A DNA stretch of 54,562 bases from a virus (Duplodnaviria > Heunggongvirae > Uroviricota > Caudoviricetes), in IMG/VR virus record IMGVR_UViG_2568526722_000002, positions 1 through 54,562 of that record; one strand, given 5' to 3'. Shown here piece after piece: positions 44,037 to 48,207 of this stretch. The position numbers and the translations under genes are program-made. Within the stretch, counting starts at the first letter, position 1; each line of letters begins with the position of its first letter. The notes beneath the pieces are model-generated. The model was given only the letters and a program-made list of their open reading frames with translations. It had not been told where the DNA came from and did not search any database.

Positions 44037-44576
44037 TCATATAGCCCCCAGCATAATCTGCACCATTTCCATCAACGGACCGGTTAACCCAGGGTCAACG
44101 CGATACATCTCCACGATCCCCTCGCTCAACTCTTTCAGCTTCTGATGACGTGGCGCATCCATTGCGACAGCAATCTTCGCTTCGCTGGTTTCCTTCTCCA
44201 GCCTTGCCAGACGAGCCATTACGTTGTCTTCTGGTAGCAGACGATTGCGGTATTCAATCGGCAGGACAGCGAGGATTGCCGGCGTCAGCTGGCGGACGTT
44301 CTCGCGGTACCGTTCGCTGTTGAAATGGTTATCCAGGAAGCGGAACAGCTTCTGCCGGGCACGGCTGTGATCTGCCGGAAAGTCGATACCTTCGCCACCT
44401 ATCCGGTGCCACTCTTCAACGATCAGGGCCGTTACAACGTCCTGCCCGGCTACTGCTGACCAGGCGCGAACAGCATCACGGAGGGCACCACAACTGACGC
44501 CCGGTTTTGGTTGAGCGCGATTTATCAGCGCTGCTGAAATGAACCCGTTACTCTGTTGATACGTAAGTGATTGCAT
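44037..44576 (-). CDS. CII-position regulatory protein (YdaT-like)
   Basis: 179 aa, immediately downstream of the cro-like gene. The family call is tentative. Confidence 0.5.
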   Translation of the reverse strand: MQSLTYQQSNGFISAALINRAQPKPGVSCGALRDAVRAWSAVAGQDVVTALIVEEWHRIGGEGIDFPADHSRARQKLFRFLDNHFNSERYRENVRQLTPAILAVLPIEYRNRLLPEDNVMARLARLEKETSEAKIAVAMDAPRHQKLKELSEGIVEMYRVDPGLTGPLMEMVQIMLGAI

Positions 44577-44587
44577 AGTTACATTCC

Positions 44588-44806
44588 TTACTTTGGTAAA
44601 CCGTCACTTGGGTTTGGATAGAGATCAGGGCGCAGCTCGTGTGGAGTTACGCCGGTAGCCGCGTAGATTTGAAGGACCCGATCAGCAGGCACCACGCCCT
44701 GGTACCGGTTTTTCCAGCGGCTGACCGACATCGGCTTGATGCCCAGCATGGTTGCGAGATTTGTTGCAGTGCCAGCGGACTTAATGGCTTTCGTTAACCC
44801 GTTCAT
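44588..44806 (-). CDS. Cro-like HTH protein (YdaS/Cro family)
   Basis: Start at MNGLTKAIKSAGTATNLATMLGIKPMSVSRWK with GGAGA SD. Divergent from the repressor across the operators. Confidence 0.75.
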   Translation of the reverse strand: MNGLTKAIKSAGTATNLATMLGIKPMSVSRWKNRYQGVVPADRVLQIYAATGVTPHELRPDLYPNPSDGLPK

Positions 44807-44834
44807 CGTTGTCTCCGATTTGAATACAATCAAA

Positions 44835-44900
44835 TTAAGCCTGAGGCTTAATTTATTGTCAAGCCTGAGGCGAATTTTCAAGTTTAAGCAAAAGGCTTAT
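44835..44900. promoter_or_regulatory. right operator region: three 17-bp operators plus the PR/PRM region
   Basis: TTAAGCCTGAGGCTTAA (44835-44851, perfect palindrome), TCAAGCCTGAGGCGAAT (44859-44875) and TTAAGCAAAAGGCTTAT (44884-44900). Minus-strand TTGACA at 44862-44857. Confidence 0.75.
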
Positions 44901-44910
44901 TCTTCTAACC

Positions 44911-45297
44911 ATGAAAGAGAAAACCGTACTTAATCCGATACTTGTCGAACGCCTTTCAGAGCTGAACGGGCGCGGTATGACCAAATCCGATATGGCCAGG
45001 GTTGCTGGGGTAACCCCGCAGTCTGTGAACGGCTGGTTTAAAAAAGGCGTGATCAGCAAGAAATCAGCTCTCGCTGTCGCTGACGCAGCTGGCGTGTCTG
45101 TGCCTTGGTTACTCGGTGAGGATGTCGGCGAGAAGGACGGACTTAAGCCGGACGAACAGCGCCTGCTTGAGCTCTACCGCCAGCTGCCAGAAGAAGAGCA
45201 ACAGAACATGCTCCGCATCTTTTCGATACGTCTTAAGGAACTGGATGAGCTGTATGAGAAGTACATGAAGGGGCGGATTCGCTCGCAGGGGGACTGA
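44911..45297 (+). CDS. CI-like repressor, HTH_XRE, without an S24 autocleavage domain
   Basis: 128 aa. ...MTKSDMARVAGVTPQSVNGWFKKGVISKKSALAVADAAGVSVPWLL.... It has a short helical C-terminus and no Ala-Gly / Ser...Lys signature. Confidence 0.8.
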   Translation: MKEKTVLNPILVERLSELNGRGMTKSDMARVAGVTPQSVNGWFKKGVISKKSALAVADAAGVSVPWLLGEDVGEKDGLKPDEQRLLELYRQLPEEEQQNMLRIFSIRLKELDELYEKYMKGRIRSQGD

Positions 45298-45437
45298 ATC
45301 GCTTTAGGTTTGTCCTGAATTTTTAGTTCCCATGAGACAATGATGTCTTTACTGGGGGGTGATTCCGCCATTTATGTTAGATTGAAAAAACTATCAATTT
45401 AATTAATATTTATCACTACTACACGGGATGTTTTGCA

Positions 45438-46742
45438 ATGACAGCTGAGATTGTTGTAATAAATAATACTGGAATCGCCCTTGCTGCTGACTCTGCAGTC
45501 ACCACAGAGCATAATAGATTAGTAAAAATAAATAATAGTGCGGAAAAACTATTCGAACTATCTAAACACCATCCCGTGGGGATCATGATTTATAATAATG
45601 CGACACTGGGTGGCGCACCGTGGGAACTTATAATTAAATCCTATAGAAAACAATTGGGGAAAACTAGTTTCCCTACCATTAAAGAATATGTTAATGACTT
45701 TGTAAAATTCATCAATGGTAACTCAGACCTTATAACAAATGAAATGAGAGAGGCTTGCGTTATAAACCTTGTTGTTGATAACCTCAAAGGTTTGATGAGA
45801 TACATTAATGATAATAATGTAGTAAACTATTTAACAATGAACCCCGCCGTTGAACTCGACAATGTTATTTTTCAAAACATAGTTAAGCAAGCCTTTGATT
45901 TAGAGATAGGAATCTTAAGGAATAATCTCTTTTTCGAAGGGTTTGATACAGAAGAGTTTAATGATGCTTTAGCATATATACAAGATTTAATATCGCCATA
46001 CATTTCATCAATTATTGTTCTTGATAACTGTGAAAATATACAGCAAGAGCTTATGGAAAAAGTCATATTATATTCCACTTGTTTAATTTTCAAAGTCCAT
46101 GCTAGTCGTACATATTCAGGGATTGTTATAACAGGTTATGGAGAGGAAGAATATTACCCTTCCATTTGCACTCTTCATATCTACGGCATTTTTAAAAACA
46201 AATTGATGATCCATAATATTGATGATAAATCCCATAATGAGGTAACCAATATGGGGTTTGTTATACCATTTGCTCAAGAAGATGAAGTAGTAACTTTCAT
46301 TGATGGGTGCAACCCTAACATCATTAATTTTAACAGAACTCTTACAGAGGAAGTTTTTGATCGGCTTAATCATTATGTTTCTAGCAATATTTTCCCTGCA
46401 ATGAACAATGGAGTACTAGCCAATCACTTCTCCAGTGAAATTGAGGAACTCAAAAACGTACTTTTACAAGATCACGATACTAAACTTGAAAGCTATATTG
46501 TTAATAACCATACAAATAAAATGATATCGATGTTGCAATCACTTGGGAAGGCAGATCTTGCGTATATGGCCGAATCATTAGTGAACATCACTGCATTCAA
46601 AAGAAAAGTATCACATGATTATGAAACTGTCGGTGGGCCTGTTGATGTCGCTGTGATATCAAAAGTTGATGGATTTGTTTGGGTAAATCGTAAACACTAC
46701 TTCCCTAAAGAGCTAAACTCTAACTACTTTAATCGTCAATAA
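45438..46742 (+). CDS. proteasome-beta/HslV-like Ntn-hydrolase homologue with large insertions (434 aa)
   Basis: N-terminus M-TAEIVVINNTGIALAADSAVT...SAEKLFEL and C-terminus ETVGGPVDVAVISKVDGFVWV mirror 20S beta TTTVGI..AVIMATERRVT...GKKLFQI and [21 protein letters not shown]. The gene is AT-rich. Confidence 0.6.
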   Translation: MTAEIVVINNTGIALAADSAVTTEHNRLVKINNSAEKLFELSKHHPVGIMIYNNATLGGAPWELIIKSYRKQLGKTSFPTIKEYVNDFVKFINGNSDLITNEMREACVINLVVDNLKGLMRYINDNNVVNYLTMNPAVELDNVIFQNIVKQAFDLEIGILRNNLFFEGFDTEEFNDALAYIQDLISPYISSIIVLDNCENIQQELMEKVILYSTCLIFKVHASRTYSGIVITGYGEEEYYPSICTLHIYGIFKNKLMIHNIDDKSHNEVTNMGFVIPFAQEDEVVTFIDGCNPNIINFNRTLTEEVFDRLNHYVSSNIFPAMNNGVLANHFSSEIEELKNVLLQDHDTKLESYIVNNHTNKMISMLQSLGKADLAYMAESLVNITAFKRKVSHDYETVGGPVDVAVISKVDGFVWVNRKHYFPKELNSNYFNRQ

Positions 46743-46759
46743 CACATAAGGAGATATTA

Positions 46760-46864
46760 ATGTCTATAAAGCAAGCTCTCAATAACGCTTATAAAATCAT
46801 TGTAAATCAAAAATTTGGTAATAAAGAACAGCAGCACTCGCCGAAAGGATTTAACCAGCAGTAA
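46760..46864 (+). CDS. 34-aa micro-protein co-transcribed with the Ntn-hydrolase-like gene
   Basis: MSIKQALNNAYKIIVNQKFGNKEQQHSPKGFNQQ. An AAGGAG SD lies 7 nt upstream. It ends 3 nt before the terminator and is below the ORF-track cut-off. Confidence 0.45.
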   Translation: MSIKQALNNAYKIIVNQKFGNKEQQHSPKGFNQQ

Positions 46865-46866
46865 TG

Positions 46867-46896
46867 AAAAAACCCGGCCACAGCGCCGGGTTTTTT
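46867..46896 (+). terminator. intrinsic (bidirectional-looking) terminator
   Basis: AAAAAA CCCGGC cacagc GCCGGG TTTTTT. Confidence 0.8.
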
Positions 46897-46942
46897 ACAC
46901 CCTCACCCACCATCTCAGCCGCCAACACCCAGCCACGAAGTC

Positions 46943-46975
46943 CCCGATCTCGACCTTAGCGTCGGGATTTTTTTT
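46943..46975 (+). terminator. second terminator-like hairpin with T8
   Basis: CCCGA ..14 nt.. TCGGG a TTTTTTTT. Confidence 0.4.
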
Positions 46976-47000
46976 GCCTGCAATTCGGTGAACATCACGA

Positions 47001-47067
47001 TTAAGCCTGAAACTTACAATCACATTTCGCCTGGAGCTTGACATGATTTAAGTCTCAGGCTTAATAT
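47001..47067 (+). promoter_or_regulatory. left operators plus PL promoter
   Basis: TTAAGCCTGAAACTTAC (47001-47017) and TTAAGTCTCAGGCTTAA (47048-47064). Promoter is TTGACA (47038-47043)-18-TAATAT (47062-47067), with the operator in the spacer. Confidence 0.7.
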
Positions 47068-47703: not shown

Positions 47704-48207
47704 ATGAATATGCGAGAAAAATTATCACTGGCACGACTGAAGGAATTGCTCAGCTACTCGCCTGAAACAGGAGCATTCACATGGCTCAAAAATCGCGGAC
47801 GGATAACCGCAGGTGATTTTGCTGGAAATTTAGATACGCGCGGCTATGTACGAATCATCATCGATGGAAAGAAATACAGAGCACACCGCTTGGCCTGGCT
47901 TTATACACACGGAAAATGGCCTTAAGACCAGATTGACCATGTGAATGGAAATTGCTCTGACAACAGGCTGGAGAATCTCCGCGAGGCTACTTGCTCACAG
48001 AATAACTTCAATAAACCGCTTCAGAAAAATAATACGAGCGGAGTGAAAGGAGTTTATTGGCACAAAGGGAAACAACGCTGGACAGCCATGTGCCGAGTTA
48101 ATGGCAAAAGATTCACGGTAGGAACTTTTATTGAATTAGAAAAGGCTGCGGAAGCAATACGCGACTTCCGCAAAGCGAATCATGGTTCATTTGCCAGGAA
48201 TTCATAA
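47704..48207 (+). pseudogene. HNH_3 + AP2-type homing endonuclease interrupted by one in-frame TAA (47923-47925)
   Basis: ...[42 protein letters not shown]...GVKGVYWHKGKQRWTAMCRVNGKRFTVGTF. ORFs 47650-47925 and 47941-48207 are in the same frame. Confidence 0.75.

Follow-up and report, generated by a model that had tools for sequence, protein, structure and literature searches.

The DNA analyzed here is a stretch of 54,562 nucleotides (positions 1 to 54,562 of IMG/VR record IMGVR_UViG_2568526722_000002; referred to below as the window) that represents a Rac-like lambdoid prophage of Escherichia coli, with a Kil-like gene, YdaE, HNH, RecE/RecT and an integrase adjoining kch, and with Q, NinG and O/P in its other arm. 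Between OR and OL, downstream of the repressor gene, lies a pair of genes on the plus strand. The larger (45438 to 46742) encodes a 434-amino-acid protein that begins MTAEIVV and is predicted to be a proteasome-family (Ntn-hydrolase) threonine peptidase without a propeptide. The smaller (46760 to 46864) starts 17 nucleotides (nt) after the TAA stop codon of the peptidase gene, is preceded by a Shine-Dalgarno sequence (AAGGAG, 46748 to 46753, 6 nt before the ATG, as read from the sequence), and encodes a basic protein of 34 amino acids (MSIKQALNNAYKIIVNQKFGNKEQQHSPKGFNQQ; net charge +4, pI 10). An initial annotation had described this pair, likened the large protein to a double-size proteasome beta subunit, and recognized its position as the one occupied by rexAB in lambda. 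We found every sequence feature where that annotation had placed it, and its structural call and its identification of the slot were right in every detail that could be checked.

Neither protein matched a Pfam model (including PF00227, Proteasome) or an NCBIfam model at an E value of ≤1, and PHROGs returned nothing for the large protein except PHROG 5990, a family of "unknown function." Where sequence libraries say nothing, the match of a structural model to the proteasome family settles the question of the fold. An AlphaFold2 model built from 40 homologues (mean pLDDT, 86.6; pTM, 0.81) contains the alpha-beta-beta-alpha sandwich with strands S1 to S11 and helices H1 to H4 (H2, residues 81 to 94; H3, 281 to 289; H4, 371 to 391). 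This canonical core is made up of residues about 1 to 100, 219 to 292, and 369 to 434, and it is interrupted by the two all-helical insertions that the initial annotation had called, the first at about 101 to 218, after H2, and the second at about 293 to 368, between H3 and H4. Structure searches found the proteasome family first. The first 49 structural matches were all proteasome beta or alpha subunits, Anbu (14.5), HslV (11.4), connectase (11.3), or BPH (11.3), with more distant Ntn hydrolases ranking after them, and the top 50 Foldseek matches were all 20S beta or Anbu at a probability of 1.0. Given this model, the large protein is very likely a proteasome-family Ntn hydrolase. Searches of the BFVD viral structures gave no member of the same family, only weaker matches to other viral proteasome-like proteins.

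Profile methods recovered the fold in part. Although a single-sequence search of PDB sequences with the peptidase yielded no match, the three best matches of a profile search were Thermoplasma proteasome beta subunits (E = 0.8), reached through the C-terminal motif. Likewise, hhalign against the Thermoplasma beta subunit aligned the C-terminal 21 residues alone (E = 2e-4; probability, 45%), whereas hhalign against HslV gave no match. The C-terminal likeness to proteasome beta that had been noted from the letters therefore stands, with VGGPxDVAVISK as the sole stretch matched by profile, while Pfam and HslV contributed nothing.

The initial annotation had also named Thr2, Asp18 and Lys37 as the likely active-site residues, and their conservation was borne out in a comparison of 135 distinct members of the family, whose sources are phages, archaea, and many phyla of bacteria. 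At position 2, 134 of these have Thr and one has Ser; D18 and K37 are present in all 135, and N9, S19, G233, G235 and VGGPxDVA are invariant too. D18 and K37 were equated with Asp17 and Lys33 by their positions in strands S2 and S4 of the model, not by residue-level superposition. With more than 6,000 relatives and invariance at residues that had been named beforehand, the observation is more than chance. The members we inspected all begin Met-Thr, except for one that begins Met-Ser, and since the initiator directly precedes the Thr or Ser, no propeptide is present. Removal of the Met would expose a Thr1 nucleophile, as it does in E. coli HslV, where methionine aminopeptidase performs this step. 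The chemistry is presumably proteolytic rather than that of a ligase. The open reading frame (ORF) in the window has no in-frame start further upstream. The 466-amino-acid representative of its 90%-identity cluster (P0001) has a 32-residue N-terminal extension that would bury Thr1; because no in-frame start precedes 45438 in the window and the inspected relatives all start Met-Thr or Met-Ser, this extension probably stems from a wrongly called start codon in some other record.

The 34-codon ORF that follows the peptidase gene proved to have counterparts at nearly all loci of the family. All 80 viral loci with a complete peptidase gene have a same-strand ORF of 34 to 67 amino acids that starts -23 to +29 nt from the peptidase stop, nearly always with ATG and in most cases behind a recognizable Shine-Dalgarno sequence. 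Cellular-genome loci gave a similar result (75 of 79); in three of the four that lack the ORF, the peptidase gene is truncated. When viral and genome loci are taken together, the small ORFs span 34 to 80 amino acids and start -32 to +29 nt from the stop codon; in many loci the partner ORF overlaps the peptidase gene, and in others the two are closely spaced. Among distinct loci, 127 of 135 have the small ORF, compared to 13 ± 3.4 in shuffled sequences and none on the antisense strand. Relative to its counterpart in the orthologous locus L167, whose peptidase is 80% identical, the window micro-ORF displays 19.2 synonymous and 7.8 nonsynonymous differences (pS, about 1.0; pN, 0.09), the same pattern as the peptidase gene (pS, 0.76; pN, 0.12). 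This pattern indicates that the micro-ORF is under purifying selection, and together with the recurrence of the ORF it makes the partner almost certainly a real gene, as had been proposed.

Most of the small proteins have in common a motif, Ser-x-x-Glu-aromatic-x-Lys/Arg-x-Tyr/Phe-Phe/Leu-Pro, in which the Pro is nearly invariant, and many also have a C-terminal amphipathic helix (G-x-x-L-A...). The clade to which the window micro-ORF belongs (NAYK...QKFG, 16 members) has a short, degenerate-looking version. The partners are basic (median net charge, +4; pI 9.7) and the peptidases are acidic (median, -15; pI 5.2). No partner protein has a transmembrane segment or signal peptide, and no DNA-binding domain, other domain, or Pfam family was detected in the small protein. 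Its public relatives are stand-alone "hypothetical" proteins of 57 to 84 amino acids only; we looked for fused or annotated relatives and found none.

Public gene calls miss the partner ORF at several loci (L164, L165 and L166, 4292 to 4678 on the minus strand; L001, 9444 to 10018; L168, 4413 to 4580). In Klebsiella loci a spurious antisense ORF of 128 amino acids is called across it, and in E. coli RefSeq records and in the Streptococcus satellite Javan421 the stretch is left unannotated. The partner family is therefore largely invisible to annotation-based analyses of gene context. In a clade of Bacteroidota and related bacteria whose peptidases start MTAVVGIL (L094, L103, L107, L108, L114, L131, L134, L148, L154, L159 and L161), the partners are longer (52 to 80 amino acids) and have no Shine-Dalgarno sequence in front, as is usual for Bacteroidota. 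They lack the aromatic-Lys-Phe-Pro motif and keep a conserved ...QQGMS-x-EEISE-[IV]-VSDK-[LI]...VKEQFE helix. The feature shared by all partners may be the C-terminal helix. At a locus of Vibrio sp. J1-1 (L095, downstream of 5257), a terminator hairpin follows directly after the peptidase stop codon, and this locus could offer a natural experiment on whether the peptidase can do without its partner.

The peptidase belongs to a large family, comprising 6,080 clusters at 50% identity (E ≤ 1e-3), with relatives at 31 to 38% identity in at least 512 species of many phyla. Family members are carried by 222 viral contigs and are rare on plasmids (10 of 72,556 records). The genome loci cover Nitrospirota, Bacteroidota, Planctomycetota, Firmicutes, Cyanobacteria, Acidobacteriota, Actinomycetota, the candidate phyla radiation (CPR), and archaea. 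Within E. coli, 13 of 5,426 complete genomes (0.24%) carry most of the region. This patchy distribution is typical of mobile accessory genes.

The initial annotation had put the locus forward as an undescribed system, and for the protein family this did not wholly hold: a catalogue of 22 new families of proteasome homologues (Fuchs, Alva and Lupas, 2021, Bioinformatics; PMC8665760) probably includes it already, with no function attached. In two of its "Proteasome homolog with Multiple Insertions" (PMI) families, PMI-3 and PMI-4, long insertions follow H1/H2 and separate H3 from H4. Inserted sequence at either place, according to the authors' argument, would collide with the contacts that form rings and double rings (PMC8665760). 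PMI-4 comprises 501 sequences at 90% identity and was recorded in Proteobacteria, Firmicutes, Actinobacteria, Bacteroidetes, the Planctomycetes-Verrucomicrobia-Chlamydiae (PVC) group, Cyanobacteria, other bacteria, Euryarchaeota, and phages (PMC8665760). Like the window peptidase, PMI-4 has a proteasome-like core, a Thr1/Asp17/Lys33 triad, no propeptide, and both insertion sites, and its distribution over bacterial phyla, Euryarchaeota and phages matches that of the window family. We consider it likely that the window protein belongs to PMI-4, a comparison made by architecture and distribution and not with the representative HDY66466.1. The catalogue gives PMI-4 neither function nor gene context (PMC8665760), and its description, unlike what we observed, includes no small partner ORF and no cargo positions in prophages or satellites. 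What does appear to be new is that a small partner gene is nearly universal and that the pair recurs in cargo slots of mobile elements. Our literature search found no later functional work on the family and no defence paper that names it; Brenes and Laub (2025), on E. coli prophage defence, was outside its coverage.

The initial annotation had suggested a survey of whether homologues lie next to prophage repressors, and in a sample of 41 diverse viral loci this was the case for about 13. In these, the gene comes right after a CI-type repressor gene on the same strand, and the repressor gene, whose product may or may not have an S24 domain, faces a Cro-like gene. A further 10 of the 41 loci have it between the antiterminator Q and the holin, antisense to both, and others have it after endolysins, a DNA methylase, or a Mu-F-like gene. 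The Q-holin loci are ten diverse enterobacterial prophages (L019 to L034, L045 and L058), and the Q-holin region is where Stx phages carry their toxin genes. For a cassette placed antisense in this way, a promoter of its own is implied, as is expression that does not depend on late transcription. In Klebsiella, a homologue with 70% identity is found behind a CI repressor of the S24 type, in another lambdoid phage. We rejected L003 as a further independent repressor context, since its repressor has the same C terminus as that of the window.

Sister Rac-like prophages share the phage backbone with the window from about 46867 onward (hits H15 and H16), including the terminator and OL, and have other cargo in the slot. 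One of them (L162, 1265 to 3495) contains a second helix-turn-helix gene, a small membrane protein of the YoaK family, HicA/HicB, and a hypothetical gene; another (L163, 1691 to 3506) has, besides a second helix-turn-helix gene, two genes that are hypothetical. This slot behind the repressor is a hotspot of cargo exchange, in keeping with the rexAB-type position that the initial annotation had assigned to this variable stretch between the repressor gene and OL. The cassette also differs in composition from its surroundings, as had been noted, with a GC content of 0.31 to 0.36 over 45400 to 46800 compared to 0.50 to 0.56 in both flanks. Elsewhere, Streptococcus phage satellites have the family gene in their cargo end, adjoining RelBE. 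Neighbours in cellular genomes vary and include type I, II and IIG restriction-modification systems, SoFic, Zeta toxin, PDC-S01, PDC-S04, HEC-06, and a dCTPase. No third gene was found to be conserved around the pair in the viral or the genome loci, and the unit therefore consists of exactly two genes.

Housekeeping protein degradation is the known role of proteasome homologues such as 20S and HslV, and one homologue, the archaeal protein connectase, acts as a ligase. Relative to 20S beta, Anbu, HslV and BPH (MEROPS T1), which are core genes, the window peptidase has about 190 extra residues in its two helical insertions, and its family resides on mobile elements. Where 20S and HslV have an alpha subunit, HslU, or another AAA+ partner, the window peptidase has none and is accompanied by a small protein instead; the pair does not correspond to HslVU, in which an HslV of about 175 amino acids is served by the AAA+ unfoldase HslU. 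Connectase differs in that its insertion lies between S3 and S4 and H1/H2 are missing, whereas the window peptidase has H1 to H4 and carries its insertions elsewhere.

The closest parallels in layout are lambda rexA-rexB and the HicAB genes of sister prophage L162, which occupy the same position in the same orientation, as two-gene units downstream of the repressor and ahead of OL/PL. Lambda rexAB is expressed in the lysogen. Its products have no kinship in sequence or fold to the window pair, since RexB sits in the membrane and RexA acts as a sensor, while the two window products are predicted to be soluble. A precedent for a prophage-encoded protease that serves as an abortive-infection effector and depends on a short peptide is Lit of the e14 prophage, which cleaves EF-Tu when triggered by the T4 Gol peptide. 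Lit, however, is a zinc metalloprotease whose peptide comes from the invading phage, while here the enzyme would be a threonine peptidase and the peptide gene lies within the cassette.

Given this context, our best explanation, which as a whole we hold tentatively and at somewhat less than even confidence, is that the pair is a conflict module expressed in the lysogen, in which a threonine peptidase is controlled by a small basic partner. The cassette would be a self-contained two-gene cargo "moron" in the immunity region of the prophage. In the lysogen it would be transcribed along with the repressor gene or immediately behind it; the two are co-oriented, and no convincing terminator seems to lie between them. 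Once Met removal had exposed Thr1, the peptidase would act as a specific, capped enzyme, as connectase does, more likely than as a degradation barrel, because its insertions occupy the ring and double-ring contact positions. The basic small protein probably interacts directly with the acidic peptidase and may bind it to act as inhibitor, as pseudo-substrate or as a factor that sets its specificity; the contact would in most clades be made through the Ser-x-x-Glu-aromatic motif. Were the partner lost or displaced upon infection, the peptidase could then be freed to cut one or a few target proteins, bringing about abortive infection or exclusion or acting in a manner that resembles a toxin-antitoxin system. 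For a conflict or defence role as such, we see a chance that falls just short of even. That the cassette is the founding member of a prokaryote-wide conflict or immune system of two genes, carried on mobile elements, with a peptidase effector gated or directed by a dedicated and hitherto unannotated basic protein of 35 to 80 amino acids, we regard as a possibility to be held more loosely still.

Several observations weigh against this explanation. Genomic context is what speaks for the defence or maintenance role suggested in the initial annotation; PADLOC-DB v2, which models known defence proteins, gave no match at E ≤ 1 for either protein, and an enrichment of defence genes near family members, read from a raw list of neighbours, is no more than suggestive. 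Hydrolase and transpeptidase chemistry fit the data alike. One intact peptidase gene, that of Vibrio sp. J1-1, has no small ORF. Neither phmmer clustering nor an iterated hidden Markov model joined the window micro-ORF clade to the main family of small proteins, so that its homology to them is suggested by position and a loose resemblance in the motif. Finally, the stretch that holds a candidate promoter for the cassette is absent from L167.

The same observations can be read in other ways. The pair could be a pure addiction module, with the peptidase as toxin and the small protein as labile antitoxin, that stabilizes the element carrying it and has no part in phage defence. Two closely spaced or overlapping genes are what a type II toxin-antitoxin system would show, HicAB fills the same slot in a sister prophage, genes for RelBE, Zeta toxin and Fic lie nearby in other elements, and the distribution is patchy and horizontally transferred. 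Yet the putative toxin, at 434 amino acids, is far above typical toxin size, the toxin-first gene order is the less common one, and the partner has no recognizable DNA-binding domain with which to autoregulate; we consider this account unlikely. It also overlaps with our best explanation, because many toxin-antitoxin systems defend against phage as well. We are similarly doubtful that the pair serves the phage itself, through counter-defence, host takeover or control of lysogeny, with the peptidase, for which the small protein would be the adaptor, cleaving a protein of host immunity or regulation or else the repressor of a competitor. Carriage by 222 viral contigs and by phage satellites, the adjacency to lysis-lysogeny regulators, and a window repressor that lacks an S24 autocleavage domain would all suit such a factor. 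However, the same cassette is found behind S24-type repressors, antisense in the late region, and in at least 512 cellular genomes, including those of archaea and CPR bacteria and many without obvious phage genes, and this spread argues against a role tied to the regulation of one phage. The antisense orientation between Q and the holin, moreover, suggests expression in the lysogen and not in the lytic cycle.

Two further accounts concern the enzyme more than the element. If the peptidase worked in the manner of connectase, the small protein would be a dedicated substrate or tag, and cleavage at its conserved aromatic-Pro site would yield a fragment to be passed on or set free as a signal. The surroundings hold no conserved gene for an acceptor protein, a modifying enzyme or a transporter, and the window micro-ORF has Gly instead of Pro after Lys-Phe (QKFG), so the putative cleavage site is not universal. 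We judge this account improbable, although it is a proposal about chemistry and could be compatible with a defence role. An ordinary self-compartmentalized ring protease for general turnover, like HslV, BPH or Anbu, seems very improbable. The full proteasome beta core is present, and the small protein could be compared to an assembly chaperone like Ump1 or to a propeptide supplied in trans; but there are insertions at both ring-contact sites and no unfoldase partner, and an accessory, horizontally transferred gene found in 0.24% of complete E. coli genomes is unsuited to housekeeping.

Whichever account applies, a large family without a Pfam model is now tied to a partner gene that annotation pipelines miss. 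The family has no associated unfoldase, and its genes lie at sites that phages, satellites and genomes use for immunity and addiction functions. An orphan catalogue entry thereby becomes a compact, directly testable hypothesis of about 1.7 kb, in a family that is experimentally tractable. If the cassette does defend or kill, it would represent a new enzymatic principle for prokaryotic conflict systems and a new kind of small-protein regulator for a proteasome-like active site. It would also provide the first defence-type function on a proteasome-like fold and the first function for the PMI proteasome homologues.

The boundaries of the immunity region can be drawn from its operators. The palindrome TTAAGCCTSAGGCTTAA has three sites in the 54.5-kb window, compared to 0.11 expected, at 44835 (OR) and at 47001 and 47048 (OL). 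The OR site (TTAAGCCTGAGGCTTAA, 44835 to 44851, an exact match) lies between the divergent cro-like and cI-like genes and forms the left edge of the region, and the OL operators (47001 to 47017 and 47048 to 47064, within 47001 to 47067, plus strand) form the right edge. The latter of the two overlaps a PL-like promoter (TTGACA-18-TAATAT, 47038 to 47067, plus strand). Bounded in this way by the palindrome sites, the entire content of the region is the repressor gene and the two ORFs. The CI-like repressor (44911 to 45297, plus strand; 128 amino acids) is a helix-turn-helix protein that matches Pfam HTH_3 (E = 1e-6), Phage_CI_repr (E = 0.005), and PHROG 8, "transcriptional regulator" (E = 6e-18). 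It is paired with a divergent YdaS/Cro-like gene (44588 to 44881, minus strand) and a YdaT-like gene (44037 to 44576, minus strand). A Pfam scan detected no S24 peptidase domain in the repressor, so induction of this prophage presumably does not proceed through RecA-stimulated self-cleavage of it. When isolated phages were searched for near-identical DNA, one phage matched, and in the repressor region only.

The peptidase gene follows the repressor gene after a gap of 140 nt, in the same orientation, and a terminator scan found no convincing terminator between them. The gap contains a weak candidate sigma-70 promoter (TTGAAA-16-TAATAT, 45382 to 45409, plus strand; 9/12 consensus match). We rejected it as evidence that the cassette has its own promoter, since it is not kept in the L167 ortholog, and read-through from the repressor promoter is at least as likely. 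At the other end, two terminators had been proposed. The one that closes the unit, a CCCGGCC...GCCGGG stem followed by T6 (46865 to 46899, plus strand), is strong, with a dG of -18.9 kcal/mol (z = -5.6) that 0 of 200 shuffled sequences equaled, and the same hairpin lies 3' of the micro-ORF in L164 and L167. The second hairpin, with its T8 run (46946 to 46977, plus strand), was picked up by the terminator scan and is part of the phage backbone, but it is weak and statistically unremarkable (dG, -11.2; z = -1.5; equally stable shuffles, 20 of 200).

Beyond OL, the HNH endonuclease gene of the PL operon (47710 to 48207, plus strand) has an in-frame stop codon at 47923 to 47925 (...THGKWP-stop-DQIDHVNGN...). 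An otherwise identical gene in a prophage of NCTC 13148 (L001, 10410 to 10907) has Glu at this position and is intact, encoding 165 amino acids, so the window copy is either a nonsense pseudogene or the product of a sequencing error.

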